A stretch of 64,000 nt of DNA from Escherichia coli. GTDB lineage: Bacteria > Pseudomonadota > Gammaproteobacteria > Enterobacterales > Enterobacteriaceae. The stretch is from assembly GCF_003334355.1 (NCBI RefSeq), contig NZ_QOWP01000021.1, one strand, 5' to 3'. Shown here piece by piece: positions 270-53,024 of this stretch (the first letter of the stretch is position 1; every line of letters begins with the position of its first letter). Both the position numbers and the translations under genes were made by a program. Below the pieces are notes generated by a model. It had not been told where the DNA came from, made no database searches, and saw only the letters and a list, made by a program, of their open reading frames with translations.

Positions 270-346
270 GCATCCGTAGCTCAGCTGGATAGAGTACTCG
301 GCTACGAACCGAGCGGTCGGAGGTTCGAATCCTCCCGGATGCACCA
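270..346 (+). tRNA. argQ: tRNA-Arg (anticodon ACG), complete 77 nt
   Basis: gcatccgtagctcagctggatagagt...ggatgcacca; cloverleaf with ACG anticodon in ggctACGaacc loop; recalled E. coli arg tRNA sequence. Confidence 0.9.
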
Positions 347-7450: not shown

Positions 7451-7786
7451 TTATATAATCGCCATCACTTTCCAGACGAGCCCGTAGGTCAGCGCACTAA
7501 GCAGTGTTGGGATGATAATGCTGCGTGTTTTATAGAAACTGGCACCCAGTACCGCGAAGCCGACCAGCGTGGGCACGAAACGGCGTGTATCGTGCATCAC
7601 TTCTGGTGCGGTAGAGACAACCAGCAGAGCGCATATCGAGGCGATGCCAATGGTGTCGAGCAAAATACCTACCGCGCCACGTTTGGTTGGGCGGGCATTA
7701 CCCACACGCAGGCGCAGCGGCAAATAGCGGAAGCAATAATTCGCCACGCCAACCAGTAACCCAAGCAGCAGAACCTCATAGCTCAT
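7451..7786 (-). CDS. ygaH: AzlD-family branched-chain amino acid (L-valine) exporter subunit YgaH
   Basis: 111-aa hydrophobic ORF overlapping ygaZ end. Confidence 0.8.
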
Positions 7787-8513
7787 CGGGCGCTCCTTGC
7801 CAGAATGCCTGGATTAACGCAGTGAGGCAGCCACAGACAATGCCTGCCAGAATGGCGACGGGAATAGAAAATAGCGTTACGCCTGCAAGGGCACCAACTA
7901 ACGCTGCGGTAACGCAAAGAGATTGTTTGCGCTGGAAAGAGGCGAGCAGGAAACTCATAAAGAGTGCCGGAAGCATAAAACCTAATGCAGCTTCAACGGC
8001 GGGATAACCTTGCAGCAAGCCGCTGCCGGAGAATGCCCCTATTACCGTACCAAATACCCACGATGACCATGAACTGAAGGCAATGCCGATCATCCAGTTC
8101 TCGCTCCAGCGGCGATTATTGCGTACCAGTTTTGCGGTTGCGGCGGCAAAAACCTCATCCGTCAGGCCAAATGCCCACAGGGCGGTTTTCGATTTTTGCA
8201 GACGCTGAATAATACGGCTACGCAGTGACGGGCCATACAACACATGGCGAACATCCATTGCCATGACGGTCAGTGCAGCAACCCACAAACTACTCCCGGC
8301 TGCCAGCATCGCGGTAATGACGAACTGGCTCGCGCCTGCATAAATGATGCAGGAGAAAAAAACGCTTTCGAGAGGAGAGAATCCCAGACGGGTCGCATTC
8401 AGACCGAACGCAAAGGCCACCGGAATATAACTAATAACAATCGGTAAACTGTCTTTGCATCCTTCCATGAAGGTCGCCGAACCAGGAGCAGGCTGTGGAG
8501 TAGGGCTTTCCAT
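7776..8513 (-). CDS. ygaZ: AzlC-family exporter subunit YgaZ
   Basis: 245-aa membrane ORF, operon with ygaH. Confidence 0.8.
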
Positions 8514-8636
8514 AGAGTGTACGCTTAACGATTGTTAATATTATAAATAGACTGAATGAATATCTTAACCTTATCAGACTGATGGGCTTCTTAACACCCT
8601 TATAAGTGTAAAGCCACGAAAACGGTTGCTGATTGC

Positions 8637-9821
8637 TTAATTTGCGGCTTCCTGACGATGAAAACCTCGCCACCAGACCAGTAAGTTAACCAGGGCAATT
8701 GTCGCGCCAGCCAGACAAACGCCAGCCCAACCGCCATGTTGCCAGGCTGAGGCTGAAATTAGCGAACCGGCGGCACCGCCAATAAAGTAGCTAGTCATGT
8801 AACCTGCGGTCAGGCGATTGCGCGCATCAGGATGTATCCGATAAATTACCGTCTGGTTAGTGATATGCACGCCCTGCACGGTGAGATCCAGCACCAGGAT
8901 TCCGATAATCAACGCCAGTACGGAAGTGTGACCAAACCAGATCGCCAGCCATGAAAGTAATAGCAGCAGCAGACCGAAAGTTGTGGTGTGGTGCGATTTG
9001 CCCTTATCGGCAAAACCGCCCGCCGGACGAGCGCCCAACGCTCCGGCAGCTCCCGCAAGTCCAAACAGACCAATGACACCATCGCTGTAGTTAAAAGGTG
9101 GAGCGGCAAGCAAAAAGGCCATTGAGGTCCAGAGAATGCTGAAATTGGCAAAGGTCAGGCAGCCCAGCAACGCGCGGGTACGCAGAATTTTATCGCTGAT
9201 AAACATACTGAAAACGGAACCCAACAACTGTGGGTAGTTGAGGTGGGTTTCTGATTTCATTTGTGGCAGACCACGCCATAATGCCAGCGCCATCAGTGCC
9301 ATTAACACCGAAGCAACCCAAAAGACGGTGCGCCAGCCGCCGAGATTCGCCAGCAATCCGGCAACTGTCCGTGCCAGCAAGATCCCCAACAGCAGACCGC
9401 TCATAATAGTGCCAACCACTTTGCCGCGTTTGTCCGGTGAAGCCAGCGTCGCTGCCAGCGGAACCAGAATTTGTGCCACGACAGAGAATAAACCGGTTAA
9501 TGCCGTACCGAGGATCATCATCGCCAGCGACTGACTGCTGGCAGTGATTAACATGCCGCCTGCCGCCAGTAAGGTCATCGAGACAATCAGGCGGCGGCGT
9601 TCAAACATATCACCGAGGGGAACAAGAAACAGCAGACCTGCTGCATAGCCCAATTGCGCGGCGGTAACAATAAAGCCTGCCGAACTGGCGGAAAGGGAAA
9701 AGTTACGCGCGATGGTGTCGAGCAATGGCTGAGCGTAATAGTTACTGGCGACCGCCAGACCGGTGGCGATAGATATCAGCACGATCAGCGCCGGGCTAAG
9801 CTCATGATTAGGTTTAGTCAT
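8637..9821 (-). CDS. ygaY: MFS transporter YgaY (intact reading frame here)
   Basis: 394-aa uninterrupted 12-TMS-like ORF. Confidence 0.75.
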   Translation of the reverse strand: MTKPNHELSPALIVLISIATGLAVASNYYAQPLLDTIARNFSLSASSAGFIVTAAQLGYAAGLLFLVPLGDMFERRRLIVSMTLLAAGGMLITASSQSLAMMILGTALTGLFSVVAQILVPLAATLASPDKRGKVVGTIMSGLLLGILLARTVAGLLANLGGWRTVFWVASVLMALMALALWRGLPQMKSETHLNYPQLLGSVFSMFISDKILRTRALLGCLTFANFSILWTSMAFLLAAPPFNYSDGVIGLFGLAGAAGALGARPAGGFADKGKSHHTTTFGLLLLLLSWLAIWFGHTSVLALIIGILVLDLTVQGVHITNQTVIYRIHPDARNRLTAGYMTSYFIGGAAGSLISASAWQHGGWAGVCLAGATIALVNLLVWWRGFHRQEAAN

Positions 9822-9921
9822 TATTTTTGTTCATCAGGTGATGATTAAGCTGGAAATCAATAATAGCGGATGTTGATGAATATGGGATGAAAGATAGCTT
9901 GTTGAAATGTGCGATGTGGTT

Positions 9922-10103
9922 TGTAGGCATGATAAGACGCGCCAGCGTCGCATCAGGCATTGTGCACAGAACGGCGGATGCGGCGAAAACGCCTTATCCG
10001 CCATACGGAATGAGTGTATTTTGTAGGCATGATAAGACGCTCCAGCGTCGCATCAGGCATTGTGTACAGAGCGGCGGATGAGGTAAAAACGCCTTATCCG
10101 CCC
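9922..10103. repeat. REP/BIME palindromic elements (two tandem units)
   Basis: Repeated gtaggcatgataagacgcgccagcgtcgcatcaggcat and cggatgcggcgaaaacgccttatccgcc motifs. Confidence 0.8.
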
Positions 10104-10112
10104 GAATAAAAA

Positions 10113-11105
10113 TTACTTCTGCGCTGCCAGCGCCTCATTCACCCAGCCATCGAACTGCTGCTGGTGGGCTTTGATCCAGCCATCAACATGGCCCTGAATA
10201 TCGCCTTCTGAGGCTTTGCCGTCATGCATAATGGCGTTCTGGGCGTTAATATCTGCCACTGGCAACTGCATAATGGCAAACAGTTTCGCTGCTGCCGGGT
10301 TTTTCTCGGCCCAGGCTTTGTTGGCAACGATATGCATGGTGCTGACCGGGAAGCCATAATTCGCACCATTCGGCAGTTTGGTATCGGCGTTTTTATCGCC
10401 CGGCAGTGCGGAGAACGGCACCTGCAACCAGACGACATCTTTGCCCGGCTTCAGTTCGTTACTCACCCAGTACGGCGTCCAGGTGTAGTAAAACACCGGT
10501 TTGCCCTCTTTGTAGCGACTGATGGTGTCGGCCATCATCGCCGCGTAGTTCCCCTGATTATGCGTCACGGTATGGGTCAGTTCATACGCGGCAAGCTGGT
10601 GGTTGATCGCACCTTCGCAGCCCCAGCCAGGGTTACAACCGGTTAAATCCGCTTTTCCGTCGCCGTTGGTATCGAACAGTTTGGCGATCTTCGGATCTTT
10701 CAGTTGTGCGATGTTGGTGATTTTGTACTGGTCGGCGGTTTTCTTATCGATCAGGTAACCCTGTGCCGCGCCGTTAACAAATACCCCTTCACGATAAAAT
10801 TTCTTATCGCCACCGGCAGCTTCGTACATGTTGTCATGCAGTGGCGTCCAGTTCACGGCGGTGAAGGTTGCATCGCCGGAAGCAAGCGAGGTGTAGCCAA
10901 CGTTGTAATCTACTTCGCTGGGTTTGTTGACGGTATAACCTAATTTCTCCAGCGCACGACTGACCAGCAGCGTCTGGAAGGTTTCTTCAGTGATGGTGCT
11001 CTGAACTGGATTAACAGTAATGCCTTTGCCCGGCAGATCGGCAGCAAAAGTTTGTGTAGAGATAAGCGTGGCAAACGCTGTCGCAAAAAGTACGCTATGT
11101 CGCAT
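10113..11105 (-). CDS. proX: Glycine betaine/proline ABC transporter periplasmic binding protein ProX
   Basis: Start taken at [11 protein letters not shown] signal peptide; ORF extends 14 codons upstream. Confidence 0.9.
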
Positions 11106-11162
11106 TGTTATTCCTTTTTTTGGCAGGGTGATAATGCCCGGCGTCACCGGGCAAGTGCAGAG

Positions 11163-29587: not shown

Positions 29588-31840
29588 TTATAAATAGAGA
29601 TAGTTCGGCGGTTCTCCTGTTTTCCCTAAAAGAAGAGCGCTACGCCCAGGAATATTGATATTTAGAGTTCCGCCTCTAAGCGTAAATACTTTACCAGGAG
29701 GGATAATTTTTCGGGTATTATTAATAATAATGTTAACGCTATTACTCCCCATGTTTTTGTATATTCCAGGTTGCAATTTGTTAGGCCAGGTACCTTCAAC
29801 TTCTTCGTTTCCTTTATTTATTATAACTAGTCCATCATGAGGAGAGTGATTAATGTTCACAGAATCCCCACGACTAAAGGCCAGAACGTTTTTAGTTGCA
29901 GATACACCCTCAAATGCGCTCCATATTCCTGCTTTATCTATATATAATGCGTGGAATTCATTGTAGAGCTGCTGATAGGTAGAGCAACCTTTATTAAGCT
30001 ACGCCTCACCGCCGACACGCGTGGACCCATCATAATTTTTAATTTCAGTCGTTGATTTTAATACTTGGCCATCCCAGTAAACTAAAGGCCTGCTGAACGG
30101 CAGAGCGGCTATATATGCCATTGCTAATTGTTCATCTTGTTGATGGTTAAATAGAAAGTCATTGAAAAGATTACCATTGTTAGGAAAATCGTGGTTAATG
30201 TTAATCAATATCCGTCTTTCTGATGGGATACTTGAGATTGTGGAACCCGGTTTTGATGCAAGGGTTTGAAGATCTCCACCAAATGAAAAGGCTTTTATCG
30301 TTTTCATGAGCAATGAAAAATCAATGGCGCTTAAATCATCTCTTTCATAAAGCAGTGATGACATTTGTTGTTCATCCAACTGACAAGTTACCAGATATTC
30401 CATGTAATTCATAACGGCTTTTTTATGATATTTTGGGTTAAATAAGTTAGTATTGTGTAACCGCTCATTATAATTTTTAAGCGGTGGGGTTATTGATCTT
30501 TCTATTTGTTCATGTTTTGAGTGTTTTGCCGCATCATAACGTAAACCTCGTACGCCATATTTTCGCATTTCACGAACGTATTGATTTTGCAACATAATAA
30601 CCTGGTCACTTTTGGGTGTTGTTTTAGGCATTCCATTTAAACGCTTTTCTTTTAATGCATGGAGGTTTTCCCATTCATCCTTAGAGATGTTATCTTTACT
30701 TGCTTCGAAGTCTTTTGCAGTGAGATGTATATCTTCTGGATGGATTTGTTTACGTTCTTTTGTTACTGGATCTTTAATGAATGGAATCAAAACCTGACCT
30801 TGCTAATAGCCAGGGATACCACCTTCTATATCTTTACTGATCTTCGCTCGTATATCAGCAAAGGGATAATCCAGGTCATTTTTACCACTACCCCCAATTC
30901 CCATAAAGTTAAAGGTATAATCAGGAATGATATCGATACCAAATTTTTTAGCATCTTTAACCAATGCAATAAAATCCTGCAAATCTCCCATTGGATTATG
31001 GATGGTACAAAGATCTTCGGATTGATAAGCATGAAACCAGTAACCCTTTTCTTCTTCGGGAGTTTCTGGTCCGTCGGCGCGGAAAGTTGTCACTGGAGGG
31101 ATTTGTATATACCCATAATGGCAACGTGCAAATTCAGACATATTTTCTCTGATCTGCTGGTAGGTGGCATTAAAAGCATGAAGAATCGCTTCGCCAGGTT
31201 TTTTGGGGGTGATGATTTCACATTGTGATTTCTGAACAGCAGTAAGAGATTTACGCTCAAGTGTTTGCCGTAGATGTTCTAGATTGATTAATATTTTAAA
31301 TGTTTCTTGCTGTCCGGAAGGTGACGTCACGTTAATATTATATACATCGGCTGCCAGCTCATAGTCAGGAATGTTAATAGCATATGCAACATATTTATCT
31401 TTTGGGGAAGGTTTGTCAGATATAATGTGGGTGAAATTTTCAGCACGACCATACTGATAAACACCGCTGTTATCACCTCTTTCAATCATTGTATCTCGTT
31501 GATAAACCTATGTTTTTCTTTCTCCTATCCTGTCTGGCGCTGTAATGCTACGCTGTGCTGCTTTATTCAACTCTCGGTAAGTTGTATCTGGAGAAAGGGA
31601 AATTTTATAATCGTTTTTTAACAGATCATTAATAACTTTTTCTGCGTGAAAAGTTGATATAATTTCTCTGTCTTTTAATCCTTGAGGGTAAACTCCACAA
31701 GAATTAATAATATTTGTTATACAGTTTAGATATTCTAATGTATTTAATTTGGAATTTAGATCCCCGTCAGTAATGTTCCATGATAACAATGTGGGGTTGT
31801 CGATAGGTAAATTTCTGGGTCCTGGTTTTATAGAAAACAT
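29588..31840 (-). pseudogene. ygaQ: ygaQ-like glycoside hydrolase (alpha-amylase-like) gene interrupted by three in-frame TAG codons (31508-31510, 30803-30805, 29999-30001), no frameshifts
   Basis: Four consecutive minus-strand ORFs share one reading frame; GH13-like GIDIIPDYTFNFMG segment. Confidence 0.7.
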
Positions 31841-35160: not shown

Positions 35161-35489
35161 TTTTTATGTGAGCAGAAGATATTCATCAGAAACGATTATG
35201 TAAATCATTTTATTTTGCCAACGGCCTCATTGTCGAAAGAAAAGAATACGCCCGTATTTCCTGAATGGATTGACTTTTTTATCCAACCACACTTCAGCGC
35301 ACTGCGTTTAAAAAATGCCTCATTCTTATGCGGAATATCATCATTTCATCATGATGTCTTTGATGAGCGGTGAACACAATACACTTGCGCTGTCTCTTCA
35401 GGATGAATCCCCTGGTCTGGTGCCTGTGGGCTGATGTTGCAGCAAAGCTAAGGTCGCTTAAACGCTACTCAGTATTCACTTTTCAGAGG

Positions 35490-38400
35490 ATGAAATTTAT
35501 GAACAGGACCAGTCCCTATTATTGTCGCCGCTCAGTACTTTCCTTATTGATATCTGCCTTGATATATGCCCCGCCCGGGATGGCTGCCTTCACTACTAAT
35601 GTTATTGGTGTGGTAAACGATGAGACTGTAGATGGCAACCAAAAAGTGGATGAACGAGGTACAACAAATAACACTCATATTATCAACCATGGCCAGCAGA
35701 ATGTTCATGGCGGGGTATCTAATGGAAGTCTTATTGAATCTGGTGGATATCAAGATATAGGAAGTCATAACAATTTTGTGGGGCAGGCTAATAATACAAC
35801 CATTAACGGTGGCAGACAGTCAATTCATGACGGGGGTATTTCCACAGGTACGACAATCGAGAGTGGCAATCAGGACGTTTATAAAGGGGGTATCAGCAAT
35901 GGAACGACAATTAAGGGCGGTGCTTCACGCGTAGAGGGAGGGAGTGCGAATGGAATACTCATTGATGGTGGTAGCCAGATAGTAAAAGTTCAAGGGCATG
36001 CTGATGGTACAACGATAAATAAGTCTGGCTCTCAGGACATCACGCAAGGAAGTCTGACAACGAACACAACCATAAATGGTGGTCGACAGTATGTTGAACA
36101 GAGCACAGTAGAAACAACCACCATTAAAAATGGCGGTGAGCAAAGAGTATATGAGAGCCGTGCGCTGGACACGACGATTGAAGGCGGAACTCAGTCTCTG
36201 AATAGTAAGTCAACGGCAAAAAATACGCATATCTATTCTGGTGGCACGCAAATTGTTGATAACACCAGCACCTCGGATGTTATTGAAGTTTATTCTGGTG
36301 GCGTGCTTGATGTTAGTGGTGGTACGGCAACAAATGTTACCCAGCACGATGGTGCAATTTTAAAAACTAACACTAACGGTACGACGGTGAGCGGTACGAA
36401 TAGTGAAGGTGCATTCTCCATCCACAATAAAGTGGCAGACAATGTGTTGCTGAAAAATGGAGGCCATTTAGAAGTATCTCATTCCGCAAACAAGACGATT
36501 ATTAAAGATAAAGGAACAATGTCAGTTTTAACCAATGCTAAAGCTGATGCGACCCGAATAGATAATGGCGGGGTTATGGATGTTGCAGGAAACGCGACAA
36601 ATACCATAATTAATGGTGGCACACAGAATATTAATAATTATGGCATAGCCACAGGCACCAATATCAACAGCGTAACGCAAAATATCAAAAGCGGCGGGAA
36701 AGCTGACACAACAATTATATCCTCCGGGAGCCGGCAGGTTGTTGAGAAAGATGGTACGGCAATTGGCAGCAATATTAGCGCCGGAGGCTCGCTGATTGTC
36801 TATACCGGCGGTATTGCACATGGGGTTAACCAGGAGACGGGCAGTGCTTTAGTTGCCAACACGGGCGCAGGGACTGATATCGAAGGATACAACAAGCTCT
36901 CTCACTTCACTATTACCGGAGGGGAGGCTAATTATGTTGTGCTGGAAAATACCGGCGAACTGACGGTAGTGGCTAAAACCTCGGCGAAAAATACCACCGT
37001 TGATGCTGGCGGTAAACTGATCGTCCAGAAGGAGGCCAAAACAGATACCACCAGACTTAACAATGGCGGCATTCTGGAGGTTCAGGACGGTGGAGAGGCT
37101 AAGCATGTAGAGCAACAATCCGGCGGCGCATTAATTGCTTCCACGACTTCCGGAACACTTATCGAAGGAACCAACAGTTATGGTGATGCTTTCTACATCA
37201 GGAATTCAGAAGCTAAAAATGTAGTGCTGGAAAACGCTGGCTCATTAACAGTCGTCACTGGTTCCCGGGCAGTTGATACGATTATTAATGCCAACGGCAA
37301 AATGGATGTTTATGGAAAAGATGTTGGCACTGTACTTAATAGTTCTGGCACCCAAACAATATATGCCAGTGCCACTTCTGATAAAGCAAATATCAAAGGT
37401 GGCAAGCAAACGGTATATGGTTTAGCCACTGAGGCAAATATCGAAAGTGGTGAACAAATTGTTGATGGTGGGTCAACAGATAAAACACACATCAATGGTG
37501 GCACGCAAACCGTTCAGAATTATGGTAAGGCGATCAATACCGATATCGTCTCTGGCCTACAACAAATTGTGGCAAACGGGACAGCGGAAGATTCCATTAT
37601 TAATGGCGGTTCACAGGTAGTTAATGAGGGCGGTCTGGCTGAAAACTCGGTGCTTAATGACGGCGGCACACTCGATGTGCGGGAGCAAGGCAGCGCAACG
37701 GGGATACAGCAGAGTAGCCAGGGCGCGTTGGTTGCAACCACCAGGGCGACGCGGGTCACAGGGACACGCGCTGATGGCGTCGCGTTCAGCATCGAGCAGG
37801 ATGCGGCGAACAATATCCTGCTGGCAAATGGCGGCGTGTTAACCGTGGAGTCAGACACCACTTCCGCCAAAACACAGGTCAATGCGGGCGGTCGGGAGAT
37901 CGTCAAAACAAAAGCCACTGCGACAGGCACGACGCTCACCGGCGGCGAACAAATCGTCGAGGGGGTGGCGAATGAGACAACAATTAACGACGGCGGAATA
38001 CAAACAGTTTCAGCTAACGGAGAGGCAATAAAAACAAAGATCAATGAAGGCGGTACGCTGACAGTCAACGATAATGGCAAAGCGACAGATATCGTCCAGA
38101 ACAGCGGTGCCGCTCTCCAGACGAGCACGGCTAACGGTATTGAAATCAGCGGTACTCACCAGTACGGTACTTTTTCCATTTCCGGCAATTTAGCGACCAA
38201 TATGTTGCTGGAAAATGGCGGTAATTTATTGGTATTAGCAGGTACCGAAGCTCGCGACTCCACGGTTGGCAAGGGTGGGGCAATGCAAAACCTGGGTCAG
38301 GACTCCGCCACAAAGGTTAACTCTGGCGGGCAATATACCCTTGGGCGGTCAAAAGATGAGTTTCAGGCTCTGGCCCGGGCAGAAGATCTCCAGGTCGCTG

Positions 38401-47171: not shown

Positions 47172-48113
47172 ATGGATGCACTGCATGTCGCGCTTGAAAA
47201 TCTGATTAGAGATGATGGTCAAACACTAAATAGTTATTTTAGTGAAGTTAAAGTTAATTCATTGATTGAAAATACAAATGCAACTTGTCATTTTCATTGC
47301 CTTAATCTTGATGGCAATGGACGTCCTCGGGTAGACGCGTTAATCCAATTCTTGAACGATAAAGTAGTTGATTATGCTATTCCAAGGAAAAAAATCAATG
47401 AGGCAGTGCAATATTTTAATGAAACACAATCAACAGCGAAAATAACAAAATTAGCAAATCAAGCAAAAAGATTATTTACTAGGCTTGCAAATAGTGGCGA
47501 AGGCGGTGAATTTATCCTTTTTTTATTTGCAGAGCAATTCCTTAGATTTCCACAAATTATTTGCAAAATGAGCCTGAAAACGAGTTCTCAAATGCATTAC
47601 CATGGTGCAGATGGAATACATATAGGCGTAGATAAAGATAATAAAAAATTATGTTTATACTGGGGCGAGTCTAAACTCTATTCCAGTCTGAGCAAAGGTA
47701 TTTCTGAGTGTATGGATAGTATAGCTCCATTACTTCAAAGTTCTATGGGAATAGAAGGCGCTGAGACACGTGATATGCAGTTGCTGGAGTCGCACTTAAA
47801 TGTTGATGATATAGAACTAGAACAAGCGTTGAAAAGATTCTTAGATCCTGATAGCCCGGATTTTAATAAATTGGAATACAGAGGAATATGCTTAGTTGGG
47901 TTTGATCTTAAAGATTATCCACAAGGGCCCAGTTCAATTGATATCAGTGAACTAGTTGCTTTGATTAATACTAAAGTCGGGAAATGGTCAACTAGTGTGC
48001 AAGGTGGTATAGTTAATAAAAAACTTGATCGCTTTGCTATGCATGTTTTTATTCTTCCTTTTCCTTCAGTAAAAGCATTTAGGGCTAGTTTAATTAAAGC
48101 ATTGGAGAGTTGA
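47172..48113 (+). CDS. Cargo gene 1: putative PD-(D/E)xK-like nuclease-fold protein, HamA/DUF1837-like candidate (313 aa)
   Basis: AT-rich ORF; E(110-113)...D147 (GADG)...E166-S-K168 (GESK, 47667-47675) arrangement; no P-loop; coupled to downstream helicase. Confidence 0.45.
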   Translation: MDALHVALENLIRDDGQTLNSYFSEVKVNSLIENTNATCHFHCLNLDGNGRPRVDALIQFLNDKVVDYAIPRKKINEAVQYFNETQSTAKITKLANQAKRLFTRLANSGEGGEFILFLFAEQFLRFPQIICKMSLKTSSQMHYHGADGIHIGVDKDNKKLCLYWGESKLYSSLSKGISECMDSIAPLLQSSMGIEGAETRDMQLLESHLNVDDIELEQALKRFLDPDSPDFNKLEYRGICLVGFDLKDYPQGPSSIDISELVALINTKVGKWSTSVQGGIVNKKLDRFAMHVFILPFPSVKAFRASLIKALES

Positions 48114-48114
48114 A

Positions 48115-50697
48115 ATGTCGTTGCGAGATTTATCTGGGTGGTTGATTAAGAATCAAGGATTCTTAAGAAAATATCAGGCATTAGTCGCTAACTCGATAAA
48201 AGATCAATTTCCAGAGTTAAAATCAGATGTAATCCCACAGATTAGTTCTGAGGATGTCGGCTATCTTTTAACATGTGCTAGTTCTTTGGCTTTCTCAAGT
48301 GATGAGAAATGCCAAGATGCAGCCTTAAGGATTGCACAGTATTGCTTATTGAATGAAAAAAGTGAAGCAAGAAAAGATAGTGCTGCATTAATTCTTGATT
48401 CATTATCTAATAATCCAGCAATACAACTTGCTGAAAATAGGGGGTATCTTAACCCTGATTTCGAAGAAAGATTACCCTTAAAGGCTCAGTTAGAACTAAC
48501 TAAAAGAAAAATTCTATATACAATTGAAATAGATGCTGATAAGCATATTTATGCTAATAGGTTTCAATCAGAGTTTTGGGATGCGGTACAAGAAAACTCA
48601 TGGGTTAGTGTCTCTGCTCCCACCTCTGTAGGAAAATCATTTATCCTGGAATCTTGGGTGGAGCAGTTTGTAAAAAGAAATAAGAATTGCTTAGTTATTT
48701 ATATCGTACCAACAAGGGCATTGATTTCAGAAGTATATTCTGAGTTGCAAAAACGTTTGGATCCTAATTTAACAAATATAGTTAATATTCAGACACTACC
48801 ATTGAGTAATGTATACCAGAGCGAAAAATCTAATGTCTTCATATTTACACAGGAAAGATTAAATTTATTCTACAATCATTTCTCACAAATTCCAAAGATA
48901 GACGTCTTAGTTGTTGATGAAGCACACAAGATCGGTGATGGTGGAAGAGGTGTTATTCTTCAACATGTAATTGAACTGACTTGTCTAAATAACCCTGATT
49001 CAAAAGTTATCTTTGCAAGTCCTTTCACCTTAAATCCTGAAATATTGCTCAGTGATGCTCCAATATTAAAAAACAAAAGAACTATAAAAAGTGACTATGT
49101 TACAGTTAATCAAAATTTAATATGGGTAGAACAAAAACCACGCAAGACCAAAGATTGGTTGATGTATTATTTTGCAAACGGTGAAAAACGCGAGTTAGGA
49201 AACTTTTCTTTAGAAAATGCACCATCTCCTGAAAGTAAAAGATTGCCTTTTGTAGCTCTTTGTTTAGGTAAGGGGGCTTCTGGTAACGTAGTTTACGTAA
49301 ATGGAGCCGCTGAAGCAGAATCTACTTCCAAGCTAATATCTGCAAGTATAGAAAATGAGACTGAGGATGAAGAAATTTTAGCTCTCGTTGAGCTTAGTGA
49401 GACAATTATACATAAAAATTTCGCATTAAATCGCACTCTAAAAAAGAGAGTCGCTTTTCATTATGGCAACATGCCTTTAATAATAAAGGGCGAGATTGAA
49501 CGATTGTTTAGTAAAGGTAAGATTGATTTTTTAATTTGTACCTCAACTTTAGTTGAGGGCGTAAACATGGCTTGTAAAAATATTTTTATAAGAGGCCCTA
49601 AAAAGGGTAATTCAACCCCGATGCGAGAAGAGGATTTTTGGAATCTTGCTGGCAGAGCTGGTCGTTGGGGAAAAGAATTCCAAGGTAATGTCATCTGCAT
49701 CGATAGCGACAATGAAAAAATTTGGAATGGAGAGCCTCCAAAAACCAAAAAAAATATATTTATAACTCGCGCCACGGATGCTATTTCCCATGACATGGAT
49801 AAGTTGGTTTCCTATATTTTTTCAGAGCATCATTTTGGTATGTCTGAGCGGAATCCTAATCTCCAGAGTCTATTTAGTTATTTATGTTCATCATTTTATT
49901 TTTATAATGGCTTGGATAATAATCCTTACATGGAAAAGTACAATATAAAAAATATCGATGTTTTAAATGAAGCAATATTTGATGTTTTTGATTCTTTAAC
50001 TTTTCCACACGAATTGGTTGTGCGGCATCCTGGTATAAGCCCGCTTTTAATGCAAAACCTTTGGGATAGATTTTCGCGGGATACAAACAAACCTGTAGAG
50101 AGATTACTGCTTTCTGAACCTGGTAGTAATGATGCGTTAGATTCATATGTATCCGCATTCTCTAGAATTAGTGATACTCTGAGTAAGAAGCTAGGTTATA
50201 ATTCAAAAGGAGCTTACGTACAGGCCTTGCTAGTTTCCAAGTGGATGAAAGGTTATCCCCTAGCAAGATTGATCTCGGATAGAATAAGATATAACAAAAA
50301 GAAAAATATTGTTTTCAAAGAAGCGACTTTAATACGAGGGGTTATGAAGGATGTTGAAGAGATCGCTCGCTATCAAGCTCCAAGGCTTTTAGGATGTTAT
50401 AATGATTTATTAAAAAGCTTTTATCTTTCGATAGATCGCACAGACTTAGCAAAAGATGTTGAAGATATCGGTGTTTATTTAGAACTAGGTGTAAGTTTAA
50501 AAACTCAGATTTCACTAATAGGGCTTGGCTTTTCAAGAACTGCTGCTGTAATGATTTCAGAGCTTATTCCTAATGATAGTTTAGATGAGGAAGAATGCAT
50601 TAATTGGATTAAGGACAATAAAGTTGACATGGAAGAACTGCCACAATTAGTTCAAAACGAAATACATAATATATTTCGTAACTTTTGGGTACAATAG
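48115..50697 (+). CDS. Cargo gene 2: SF2 DEAH-box helicase with about 340-aa C-terminal extension, HamB-like candidate (860 aa)
   Basis: Walker A APTSVGKS (GKS 48631-48639), DEAH (48916-48927), TSTLVEGVN, motif VI AGRAGR (49648-49665); ATG 1 nt after upstream stop. Confidence 0.6.
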   Translation: MSLRDLSGWLIKNQGFLRKYQALVANSIKDQFPELKSDVIPQISSEDVGYLLTCASSLAFSSDEKCQDAALRIAQYCLLNEKSEARKDSAALILDSLSNNPAIQLAENRGYLNPDFEERLPLKAQLELTKRKILYTIEIDADKHIYANRFQSEFWDAVQENSWVSVSAPTSVGKSFILESWVEQFVKRNKNCLVIYIVPTRALISEVYSELQKRLDPNLTNIVNIQTLPLSNVYQSEKSNVFIFTQERLNLFYNHFSQIPKIDVLVVDEAHKIGDGGRGVILQHVIELTCLNNPDSKVIFASPFTLNPEILLSDAPILKNKRTIKSDYVTVNQNLIWVEQKPRKTKDWLMYYFANGEKRELGNFSLENAPSPESKRLPFVALCLGKGASGNVVYVNGAAEAESTSKLISASIENETEDEEILALVELSETIIHKNFALNRTLKKRVAFHYGNMPLIIKGEIERLFSKGKIDFLICTSTLVEGVNMACKNIFIRGPKKGNSTPMREEDFWNLAGRAGRWGKEFQGNVICIDSDNEKIWNGEPPKTKKNIFITRATDAISHDMDKLVSYIFSEHHFGMSERNPNLQSLFSYLCSSFYFYNGLDNNPYMEKYNIKNIDVLNEAIFDVFDSLTFPHELVVRHPGISPLLMQNLWDRFSRDTNKPVERLLLSEPGSNDALDSYVSAFSRISDTLSKKLGYNSKGAYVQALLVSKWMKGYPLARLISDRIRYNKKKNIVFKEATLIRGVMKDVEEIARYQAPRLLGCYNDLLKSFYLSIDRTDLAKDVEDIGVYLELGVSLKTQISLIGLGFSRTAAVMISELIPNDSLDEEECINWIKDNKVDMEELPQLVQNEIHNIFRNFWVQ

Positions 50698-50789
50698 TCT
50701 TATTTAGACGATTTTTTAAACAATCAATAGAGAAGTTTTTGAATTTTATCATTCTTCCAGTAACAAAAACTTCTCTTTTATAACACCGC

Positions 50790-51248
50790 TCAGGCTATTC
50801 CAGAATAGGCTTTGCTTACTTCACTATGCCTTGTGCCGCAATGCCTCAAAATAACAAGGCCATGTTGCAGTAACGCCTCACTACGTTCAGGTTCAAACCA
50901 TTTCCCGTTAAATTTTCCTCCGTGAAAAAGATTGTTTCTTACACGGCGGATTAACAAAAAAAGAAATTTTGCTAAATCTTTTTCTTGTGGTAAAGAATCA
51001 TCCCAAACTAAAGAGTCATCTTCTATGATTTGTTTTTTGGGTGGGTGTTCTTTAAAGTAGGTGATAGCAGCAATTAGCTCTGGATCAGTTGTGTTATTTA
51101 TGATTTCAGAAACTTGCTTTGCATACTCATCCCAGTTCGCTTTAGCATCTTTTATTTTATGATGAAGTCCACATGCCTTAAGGCAATATTCGTAACGTGA
51201 AAACTCTCTAAAGAATTCATAACATAAATTATCTAGATTATTCTCCAT
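50790..51248 (-). CDS. Hypothetical protein (152 aa), AT-rich cargo ORF between helicase and integrase
   Basis: Clean ORF convergent with the helicase operon; no recognisable motifs. Confidence 0.45.
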   Translation of the reverse strand: MENNLDNLCYEFFREFSRYEYCLKACGLHHKIKDAKANWDEYAKQVSEIINNTTDPELIAAITYFKEHPPKKQIIEDDSLVWDDSLPQEKDLAKFLFLLIRRVRNNLFHGGKFNGKWFEPERSEALLQHGLVILRHCGTRHSEVSKAYSGIA

Positions 51249-51277
51249 GAACTATATCTCCATGTATAACAAGTTAA

Positions 51278-52477
51278 CTAATATTGATTGCGCTCGTACA
51301 CTTTTTGGCCCCACCAATTCATAAGTCCTATTCGTTGCTCAAGGTAAGTTGAACGATTATATGCTCTGCGCACTTCATTTTTATCACTATGTGCAAGAGC
51401 AGCCTCAATTACATCTGCATTAAAACCCGCTTCATTTAATGCGGTGCTGGCAATTGAACGCAATCCATGAGCAACCAATCTACCACCAAATCCAATCCTT
51501 TTTAAAGCAGCATTTGCCGTCTGGCTATTCATTGGTTGCTTTGGGTCATTCCGACTCGGGAAAACATGTTCACGATGGGCACTGATTAGCTTCATCACAT
51601 CAAGAATCTCTAATGCCTGAGGAGATAGAGGGACTATGTGTTCCCGCTTAGCCTTCATTCGTTCAGCTGGGATAGTCCAGAGCTTTGCATCGAGATCGAG
51701 CTCAGCCCACCTAGCACCGGAAGCCTCAGAAGGACGAACTAGAGTCAGGAGTTGCCACTCAATGAGGCAGCGAGTCGGAACAGACAAATTTGACATGACG
51801 AGAGAACGCATCAGCATAGGCAATTCTTCTGGGCGCAACGTAGGCATATTTTGTTTTTTTGGCTTCTCAAAGGCCATTCCAATGCCTGATGCTGGATTGG
51901 CATCAATAAGACCAGTATTTACGGCATAAATCATTATCTCGTTAACACGCTGCACCAACCGGCGCACCGTCTCCAGCGCCCCACGAGCTTTGATCGGTTC
52001 AAGGGCTTCAACCAGTGTTCGGGCTTTGATTTGCTGGACAGGGATCTCCCCGATGGTGGGGAATACGTCTTTTTCCAGTGAACGCCATATATCTTTAGCG
52101 TAATCATGGGTAACGCTTTTGCTTTTGAGCTGGAACCAGTTAGCGGCGACCGTCGAAAAAATACTGTCCAGAGCGATTTGCTGCTGTTCCTCTGCAACTT
52201 CAGCTTGAATTTGCGGGTCGATTCCGTTGGCTAATAGGGCAAGGTAATCTGCTCTTAACCCTCGGGCATCAGCAAGAGAAAGGGCAGGAAAAGCACCAAG
52301 TCCCATCATAGTCCGCTGTTTTGTTGCTGGGCGTTGATAGCGAAAGCGCCAGAGTTTCTTGCCGCTAGTTTTCACTATCAGGAAAAGCCCATCGCCATCA
52401 TGCAGCGTTAGATCCTTCTCTAACGCTTTCGCGCGCAGAACTTCGGTGTTGGTCAGGGGGCGTGTTGTCCGTGCCAC
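51278..52477 (-). CDS. int: P4-type tyrosine integrase
   Basis: 399-aa ORF next to tmRNA 3' end; C-terminal catalytic region with HGLRSIAST and RAYNRSTY (His/Arg/Tyr). Confidence 0.85.
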   Translation of the reverse strand: MARTTRPLTNTEVLRAKALEKDLTLHDGDGLFLIVKTSGKKLWRFRYQRPATKQRTMMGLGAFPALSLADARGLRADYLALLANGIDPQIQAEVAEEQQQIALDSIFSTVAANWFQLKSKSVTHDYAKDIWRSLEKDVFPTIGEIPVQQIKARTLVEALEPIKARGALETVRRLVQRVNEIMIYAVNTGLIDANPASGIGMAFEKPKKQNMPTLRPEELPMLMRSLVMSNLSVPTRCLIEWQLLTLVRPSEASGARWAELDLDAKLWTIPAERMKAKREHIVPLSPQALEILDVMKLISAHREHVFPSRNDPKQPMNSQTANAALKRIGFGGRLVAHGLRSIASTALNEAGFNADVIEAALAHSDKNEVRRAYNRSTYLEQRIGLMNWWGQKVYERNQY

Positions 52478-52498
52478 TGTGGCCGCTCCTTCATGAAT

Positions 52499-52551
52499 TG
52501 GTATACGCTTTTAGGTATACATCCTACCGTATACCTAAACGTATACCAATA
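52499..52551. promoter_or_regulatory. Cluster of four GTATAC-containing repeats including the direct repeat gtatacctaaacgtataccaata (52529-52551), candidate integrase arm-type sites / int promoter
   Basis: GTATAC at 52501, 52515, 52529, 52541; 23-mer matches 40306-40328. Confidence 0.55.
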
Positions 52552-52661
52552 ATCATCGGATTTAGCCGGATGTTCTCGGACAACGACAAACACAAAAAAG
52601 CCCGCAGGGCTTGTGCCATGCGGGCTTTCTGTACTTCACCGGACGTATCCGGATCATTATT

Positions 52662-53024
52662 TGGTGGAGCTGGCGGGAGTTGAACCCGCGTCCGAAATTC
52701 CTACATCCTCGGTACTACATGCTTAGTCAGTCTTTACATTCGCTTGCCAGCTGCGGACGGACACGCCACTAACAAACTAGCCTGATTAAGTTTTAACGCT
52801 TCAACCCCAGGCAGGGCTTCCACGCGATCTCTTTTGGGTTTGACCTCTCTTGATCCCCGTCCTAAGAGCGGAGGCTAGGGAGAGAGGGCTCTAAGCAGGT
52901 TATTAAGCTGCTAAAGCGTAGTTTTCGTCGTTTGCGACTATTTTTTGCGGCTTTTTACGAGGCCAACCGCCCCTCGGCATGCACCTTGGGTTTCGCAAAT
53001 CCCGTCGAATCCAGAATCAGCCCC
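52662..53024 (-). ncRNA. ssrA: tmRNA (SsrA), 363 nt
   Basis: Reverse complement begins GGGGCTGATTCTGGATTCGACGGG and ends ...GGGTTCAACTCCCGCCAGCTCCACCA; tag ORF region present. Confidence 0.95.

Follow-up and report, generated by a model that had tools for sequence, protein, structure and literature searches.

The ygaY locus and its genomic surroundings

We analysed a stretch of 64,000 nucleotides from Escherichia coli (contig NZ_QOWP01000021.1 of assembly GCF_003334355.1), hereafter called the window. The ygaY coding sequence lies on its minus strand at 8637..9821, coordinates that include the stop codon. It consists of 394 codons followed by a TAA stop and encodes a predicted 12-TM MFS transporter, classified as TC 2.A.1.36.3. 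In the ORF listing, it appears as a single uninterrupted frame with an ATG start. A first-pass annotation of this DNA had described one unbroken 394-aa frame without naming its strand; the description held, and the strand is the minus one. The 1501-nt stretch around the gene (8500-10000) is 100% identical in DNA sequence to E. coli strain L73, where the ORF is annotated in RefSeq as WP_000165673.1, an 'MFS transporter'. Each of the 5,426 complete E. coli genomes in the collection matched the same stretch, 5,414 of them with a coverage of at least 80%. Homologues of 394 aa, at 93-100% identity, occur throughout Escherichia, Shigella and Citrobacter. With Pfam MFS_1 matches in both of its halves, an annotation as a 394-aa protein across genera and its identity to the L73 sequence, the ygaY ORF is far beyond a chance reading frame.

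All 17 ygaY alleles that we translated encode 394 aa each, without internal stops. The protein of the window differs from the common intact E. coli YgaY (WP_000165699.1, 394 aa, annotated as 'MFS transporter' and surrounded by the same neighbours as in the window) by a single substitution, M16I. This residue, encoded at window position 9774 and located within TM1, is Ile (ATA) in the window and in L73, and Met (ATG) in every other allele examined, including those of K-12, BL21, O157, E. fergusonii and Citrobacter. The change is conservative and probably neutral.

The flanking ORFs, all on the minus strand, are proX (10113-11147) on the upstream side of ygaY, and ygaZ (7776-8513) and ygaH (7451-7786) on the downstream side. 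The resulting order, proX-ygaY-ygaZ-ygaH, is that of K-12 read in reverse. The 291-bp spacer between proX and ygaY (9822..10112, minus strand) contains two units of the REP/BIME type in its distal part, at 9926-10003 and 10026-10103 on the minus strand, which scored 73.4 and 59.6 bits, respectively, against a gathering score of 59.5 for the Rfam naRNA4 model. The 291-bp form is also present in BL21(DE3). According to the alignment, the spacer is 100 bp shorter in K-12, O157:H7 and E. fergusonii, with only one REP unit, so that the window carries one additional 100-bp REP unit relative to K-12. The approximately 100 nt adjoining the ygaY start are conserved within Escherichia. A promoter and terminator scan found no consensus sigma-70 promoter upstream of ygaY, and no obvious Shine-Dalgarno sequence was seen on reading the upstream DNA. 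For K-12, an H-NS/StpA-associated bridge between ygaY and the proU downstream regulatory element has been reported, together with low-level transcription of ygaY (PMC10656529). On the other side of the gene, the 123-bp spacer between ygaY and ygaZ (8514..8636, minus strand) holds a promoter-like site predicted for ygaZH, TTAAGA-17-TATAAT at 8568..8540, which is a consensus match only. No terminator-like hairpin was predicted between ygaY and ygaZ.

Other features of the window were recorded in passing. Its left end starts inside a tRNA-Arg(ACG) array, of which one tRNA-Arg gene lies within the window (270-346, plus strand); the repeated tRNA units, which correspond to argQ/Z/Y/V in K-12, give rise to a secondary, 94% self-similar BLAST match to K-12. 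Further along, an autotransporter adhesin of the ypjA type is encoded on the plus strand at 35370-40073 as an intact ORF of 1567 aa. It differs from its K-12 counterpart by a cluster of small indels near 36041-36486, which add up to a net change of -6 nt and, therefore, keep the frame. A 12.3-kb element located by the tmRNA gene ssrA (52662-53024, minus strand) occupies 40283-52590 and replaces the 21.9-kb CP4-57 prophage of K-12. It encodes a tyrosine integrase (51278-52477, minus strand; NF007246, 587 bits), a P4-family primase (40552-42936, minus strand) and an Icd-like protein (43444-43995, minus strand). It also carries the Hachiman anti-phage pair, HamA (47172-48113, plus strand; E-value 2e-135) and HamB (48115-50697, plus strand; 1135 bits). 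The element looks like a P4-like satellite with defence cargo.

The K-12 lesion and its distribution in E. coli

In the MG1655 reference genome of K-12 (NC_000913.3), ygaY (b2681; UniProt P76628; TC 2.A.1.36.3) is annotated as a pseudogene of 1178 nt at 2808316-2809493, and in NZ_CP010445, PGAP marks the CDS as 'frameshifted'. It is the same gene at the same locus as in the window, with flanks in the same order, proX upstream and ygaZH-emrRAB downstream. The first-pass annotation had stated that the locus is interrupted in K-12, which proved accurate: the alignment against K-12 returned no identical intact frame. It returned a gene that lacks 7 bp and stops after residue 88. In the global alignment, the window and K-12 genes are separated by 12 SNPs and one 7-nt gap, located at gene nt 255-261 (window 9561-9567), which is the only indel relative to K-12 within the first 10 kb of the window. 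As a result of the gap, the K-12 frame shifts at codon 88 and ends in '...LLAAC*', with the stop at codon 89 in TM3. From M90 onward, the other 305 codons are open in another frame. Since the deletion falls in TM3 (helix 75-94 of the model described below), no product of the K-12 gene would extend beyond TM1, TM2 and the first half of TM3. Once its frame is restored, the K-12 protein differs from that of the window by one amino-acid change. The status of the K-12 gene is reflected in the literature, where the 'crypticity of ygaY' has been named (PMC10656529) and where ygaY figures among 'two pseudogenes, agaA or ygaY', its deletion being used as a neutral control (bioRxiv 10.1101/072470). Several metabolic-engineering papers that mention pseudogenes also name K-12 ygaY.

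The gap falls within a tandem direct repeat formed by two copies of the 7-bp unit GGCGGCA (9554..9567, minus strand; gene nt 255-268, codons 85-89, in TM3), one of which is missing in K-12. The junction of the K-12-type pseudogene thus contains one 7-bp unit (...ACTGGCGGCATGTT...) and is frameshifted at codon 88. The window allele, with its two copies (GGCGGCAGGCGGCA) and its open frame, is, therefore, not a pseudogene allele of the K-12 type. The nearest intact relatives of the K-12 gene belong to the HS30-1 type (protein WP_000165680.1), in which the repeat is a perfect tandem of GCGGCAT and differs from that of the window by the substitution G88C. When 7 bp were removed from the HS30-1-type allele in an exhaustive placement test, the K-12 allele was obtained with no other difference over 1178 nt. 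Because of the repeat, the deletion has no unique position: the removal of any 7 nt that begin within nt 256-264 of the HS30-1 allele gives the K-12 sequence. K-12 has, therefore, lost one repeat unit. The complete lack of further differences from the HS30-1 allele indicates that the event is so recent in K-12 that no second mutation has accumulated.

The most likely cause of the lesion is replication slippage. Slipped-strand mispairing between the two adjacent GCGGCAT units, in an immediate ancestor of K-12 that carried an otherwise identical allele, would have removed one 7-bp copy in codons 85-89, shifting the frame at codon 88 and leading to the stop at codon 89 in TM3. The K-12 deletion arose in an allele with the G88C polymorphism (codon 88 in TM3, window 9558-9560), to which the perfect GCGGCAT tandem repeat, with a 7-nt periodicity over 15 nt, is due. 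G88C is common: no fewer than 789 out of 5,426 genomes carry it (685 of the HS30-1 type and 104 of the MDR_56 type).

We used three junction-spanning megablast queries to classify the complete E. coli genomes at the repeat site, and 5,399 out of 5,426 could be assigned. The K-12 query also matched intact genomes, either with a gap at 87% identity or as a partial match of 29 nt, and the counts were, therefore, made by match class together with representative sequences. The K-12 deletion junction was present, at 100% identity over 47 nt, in 353 genomes, a figure obtained by subtracting the 685 gapped matches at 87% identity from the 1,038 full-coverage matches of the K-12 query. The site was undeleted in 5,046 genomes, distributed among the window type (2,111), the O157 type (GGCAGCGGGCGGTA; 2,146), the HS30-1 type (685) and the MDR_56 type (104). 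Among the 27 genomes left unclassified, 12 lack most of the ygaY locus. These counts refer to the deletion site only, and lesions elsewhere in the ygaY of unsampled genomes do not enter into them. The sampled members of the deletion class, with genomes of 4.58-4.70 Mb, include MG1655, BW25113-like strains, ER1709, MFDpir and transconjugant recipients, among others, and all of them are, or look like, K-12 or laboratory derivatives. We also sampled 15 non-K-12 genomes, spread evenly down the similarity ranking and supplemented with representatives of the haplotypes; an intact ygaY CDS of 1185 nt is annotated in every one of them. The BL21(DE3) gene (ECD_RS13210) is likewise an intact CDS of 1185 nt and encodes WP_000165699.1.

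The ygaY lesion is private to the K-12 lineage. Given 353 deleted against 5,046 undeleted genomes and intact genes in 15 out of 15 non-K-12 genomes, the intact form is the species norm and K-12 the exception. The strain of the window is, consequently, typical rather than special in this respect. The position of the lesion, exactly within a tandem repeat of the slip-prone kind, could also bring to mind a phase-variation switch, with intact and broken forms interconverting within lineages. Such a switch has next to no probability, as only two repeat copies are present and the deleted form is confined, as far as sampled, to K-12 derivatives (353 assemblies carry it; none of the 15 sampled non-K-12 genomes does, and the site is undeleted in 5,046 genomes). 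The same holds for a sequencing or assembly artefact as the source of the K-12 frameshift, given that hundreds of independent K-12 assemblies agree with the curated reference. We, thus, rejected both explanations and retained the loss of one repeat unit in the K-12 lineage.

Family, fold and selective constraint of intact YgaY

Profile searches place YgaY in the MFS across both of its six-helix halves. Pfam MFS_1 matches residues 17-289 (E-value 2e-32) and 218-385 (E-value 3.7e-11), and Sugar_tr and MFS_4 match as well. The AlphaFold2 model of the window protein (pLDDT 95.2, pTM 0.93) has the twelve TM helices, in two pseudo-symmetric bundles, that are expected of an MFS member, and a linker helix. 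Its helices span residues 10-40, 45-71, 75-94, 99-126, 129-161 and 163-184 in the first half, followed by the linker at 196-209 and by 211-239, 247-272, 276-298, 301-329 and 331-393, the last segment comprising two helices. Motif A of the superfamily (G-x3-D-R/K-x-G-R-R/K), located in the loop between TM2 and TM3, is present in YgaY as 68-PLGDMFERRR-77, degenerate at the second Gly (E74).

A search of 1.84 billion cluster representatives (50% level) retrieved 1,142 relatives of YgaY at an E-value of at most 1e-30, most of them collinear and of approximately 400 aa. Conservation was assessed in an alignment of 75 full-length members with 35-55% identity, which also served as input to AlphaFold2. 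Within motif A, G70 and D71 are conserved in at least 90% of these 75 members, and R75 and R76 in 75-83%. The conserved positions of the family comprise Y28, Q31 and P32 in TM1; Q56 in TM2; P68, together with G70 and D71, in motif A; R151 in TM5 (99%); D312 (89%) and N322/Q323 (88%) in TM10; and D272 and R336 in loops. All of these residues are present in the YgaY of the window.

The assignment to a named family is less straightforward than that to the superfamily. None of the 25 NCBIfam matches reached its curated cut-off. The best partial matches were to an aromatic-acid/H+ symporter subfamily and to efflux models of the Bcr/CflA, Cmx and EmrD types, and the best scores against DHA1-type models were 50.6 bits for Bcr/CflA (cut-off 200.9) and 38.5 bits for EmrD (cut-off 479). 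With no match above the cut-off, a named family cannot be assigned from this source. In addition, direct reading of TM5 (137-GTIMSGLLLGILLARTVAGLLANLGGW-163) revealed no G-P and, thus, no antiporter motif C (G-x3-G-P-x2-G-G), a hallmark of the DHA1 drug:H+ antiporter family (TC 2.A.1.2). TCDB lists YgaY (P76628) as 2.A.1.36.3, in the YnfM ('acriflavin-sensitivity') family, with the function 'Unknown' (quoted in PMC5417439). Our comparison agrees with membership of TC 2.A.1.36, as YgaY and K-12 YnfM (b1596), the namesake of the family, share 26% identity over 376 columns (BLASTP, E-value 2e-20) and are collinear end to end, with residues 28-390 of YgaY aligned to residues 53-414 of YnfM. Both proteins have the Asp of motif A, which in YnfM reads GPLSDAIGRK, and the Arg of TM5 (R151). 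The TM10 signature of the YgaY subfamily (D312...N322-Q323), in contrast, is unmatched in the alignment with YnfM, and ynfM lies in a different genomic context, ynfL-ynfM.

Sequence searches against the PDB gave weak matches only (GlcP, 3e-8; SotB, approximately 4e-4), and a fold search was, therefore, needed to place YgaY. The top Foldseek matches in the PDB were the DHA1 exporters SotB (6kkk, 6kkl), MdfA (4zp0, 6euq) and NorA (8ttf), whose 12-TM fold superposes on the YgaY model over approximately 385 columns with TM-scores of 0.80-0.85; YajR, VMAT, SPNS2, FLVCR, DgoT and GlpT followed with slightly lower scores. The identity to SotB, MdfA and NorA is 15-18%, and YgaY differs from them in lacking motif C and in scoring below the cut-offs of the DHA1-type NCBIfam models.

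The selective regime was evaluated by the Nei-Gojobori method in 28 pairwise comparisons involving E. coli haplotypes, E. fergusonii and Citrobacter. In 27 of these pairs, dN/dS ranged from 0.015 to 0.063; in the remaining one, HS30-1 against the repaired K-12 allele, the ratio is undefined, as the two sequences have no synonymous differences. Relative to Citrobacter, ygaY shows a dS of approximately 1.1-1.2 and a dN of approximately 0.045, corresponding to 27 amino-acid differences against approximately 184 synonymous ones and to 93% amino-acid identity. Synteny extends to Citrobacter and E. fergusonii, with an identical order nrdF-proVWX-ygaY-ygaZ-ygaH-emrR-emrA-emrB. These patterns argue strongly that purifying selection maintains ygaY across Escherichia, Shigella and Citrobacter. 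They also provide strong, if indirect, evidence that YgaY would be a working protein in nature. The suggestion of the first-pass annotation that the strain may retain a functional transporter gains indirect support from the low dN/dS, the synteny, the presence of the family-conserved residues and the confident 12-TM model.

A different view would be that the intact ORF is a silent, H-NS-repressed 'cryptic' gene whose intactness reflects inertia, with K-12 merely at the onset of a decay that would be neutral in all lineages. The upstream region, in which neither a consensus promoter nor a clear Shine-Dalgarno sequence was found, agrees with this view, as do the H-NS/StpA-associated bridge and low transcript levels of K-12 (PMC10656529) and the use of the K-12 deletion as a neutral control (bioRxiv 10.1101/072470). 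Apart from mentions of K-12 ygaY as a pseudogene or neutral site and the TCDB listing, the literature searched also yielded no published ygaY phenotype, nor any study of substrate, expression or transport for the intact gene. However, inertia cannot keep dN/dS at 0.015-0.06 across a dS of up to approximately 1.2, or hold the differences from Citrobacter to 27 amino acids when some 184 synonymous changes have accrued. Nor does it fit with full-length frames in 17 out of 17 translated alleles and an undeleted sequence at a slippage-prone site in 5,046 out of 5,426 genomes. Real shared decay looks different and can be seen nearby in ygaQ (K-12 b4462; window 29588-31840, minus strand), where the window and K-12 have the same three internal stops and differ by only 5 SNPs. 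Unlike ygaY, whose lesion is private to K-12, ygaQ is a pseudogene of old, shared origin. We, thus, consider a silent gene preserved by inertia to be improbable. The window very probably carries the ancestral intact allele of a 394-aa, 12-helix MFS transporter under purifying selection, of which the K-12 pseudogene is a recent and private lesion.

Probable transport direction, candidate substrates and significance

By analogy with its fold relatives and family, intact YgaY would be an MFS carrier of the rocker-switch type, powered by the proton motive force, and most probably an exporter. According to the helix boundaries in the model, D312 in TM10, R151 in TM5 and the pair Q31/Q56 are candidate sites for protons and substrate. 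YnfM has been reported to be a CCCP-sensitive, and so proton-coupled, exporter of glutarate in BL21(DE3) (PMC12622518), and anthocyanin export and acriflavine sensitivity change when it is overexpressed (PMC11026601). We considered transferring glutarate export from YnfM to YgaY and rejected it: at an identity of only 26%, the substrate of YnfM is not transferable, and membership of the family is silent on substrate.

On the basis of the model and of these comparisons, we hold with moderate confidence that YgaY would more likely be an exporter than an importer, although the exporter assignment itself is weak. It is possible, but rather unlikely, that YgaY is functional as an importer, a symporter or a facilitator instead of an H+-antiport exporter. 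The absence of motif C from TM5 would fit such a protein, and so would the best partial NCBIfam match, to the aromatic acid/H+ symporter subfamily, albeit well below the cut-off. Likewise, the symporters and importers among the Foldseek matches (DgoT, GlpT, G6PT and FLVCR), with TM-scores of 0.75-0.82, come close to the exporters. Nevertheless, the top structural matches are the DHA1 exporters SotB, MdfA and NorA, the TCDB namesake YnfM behaves as an exporter and the neighbouring ygaZH and emrAB encode exporters, the last point being one of context only.

Going a step beyond export as such, YgaY might have physiological relevance as an exporter of an endogenous metabolite, a role hidden by the private lesion of K-12. 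We regard this proposal as doubtful. Under it, an organic anion or a dicarboxylate may be one candidate substrate, as suggested by the YnfM family and by the invariant, membrane-embedded Arg151, and the role of the protein would have gone unseen owing to the almost exclusive use of K-12 in E. coli genetics, Keio-type screens and transporter surveys.

The pseudogene status of ygaY in K-12 is already known from the reference annotation and the literature, and thousands of genomes carry routine annotations of the intact orthologue as an 'MFS transporter'; nothing reported here is new in kind. The additions made by this analysis are small: it defines the lesion exactly, shows it to be private to K-12, identifies the ancestral haplotype and gives a measure of how strong purifying selection is. 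Their significance goes little beyond bookkeeping. It does have practical consequences. As the K-12 gene lacks one 7-bp copy and is otherwise the same as its nearest intact allele, the wild-type gene would be restored by a 7-bp knock-in. Since ygaY is broken in K-12 and yet is under strong purifying selection elsewhere, K-12-based screens are blind to YgaY. The right backgrounds for its study are BL21(DE3), which has an intact copy, or wild isolates. Should YgaY indeed export an endogenous metabolite, a transport phenotype would set K-12 apart from BL21 and wild E. coli.
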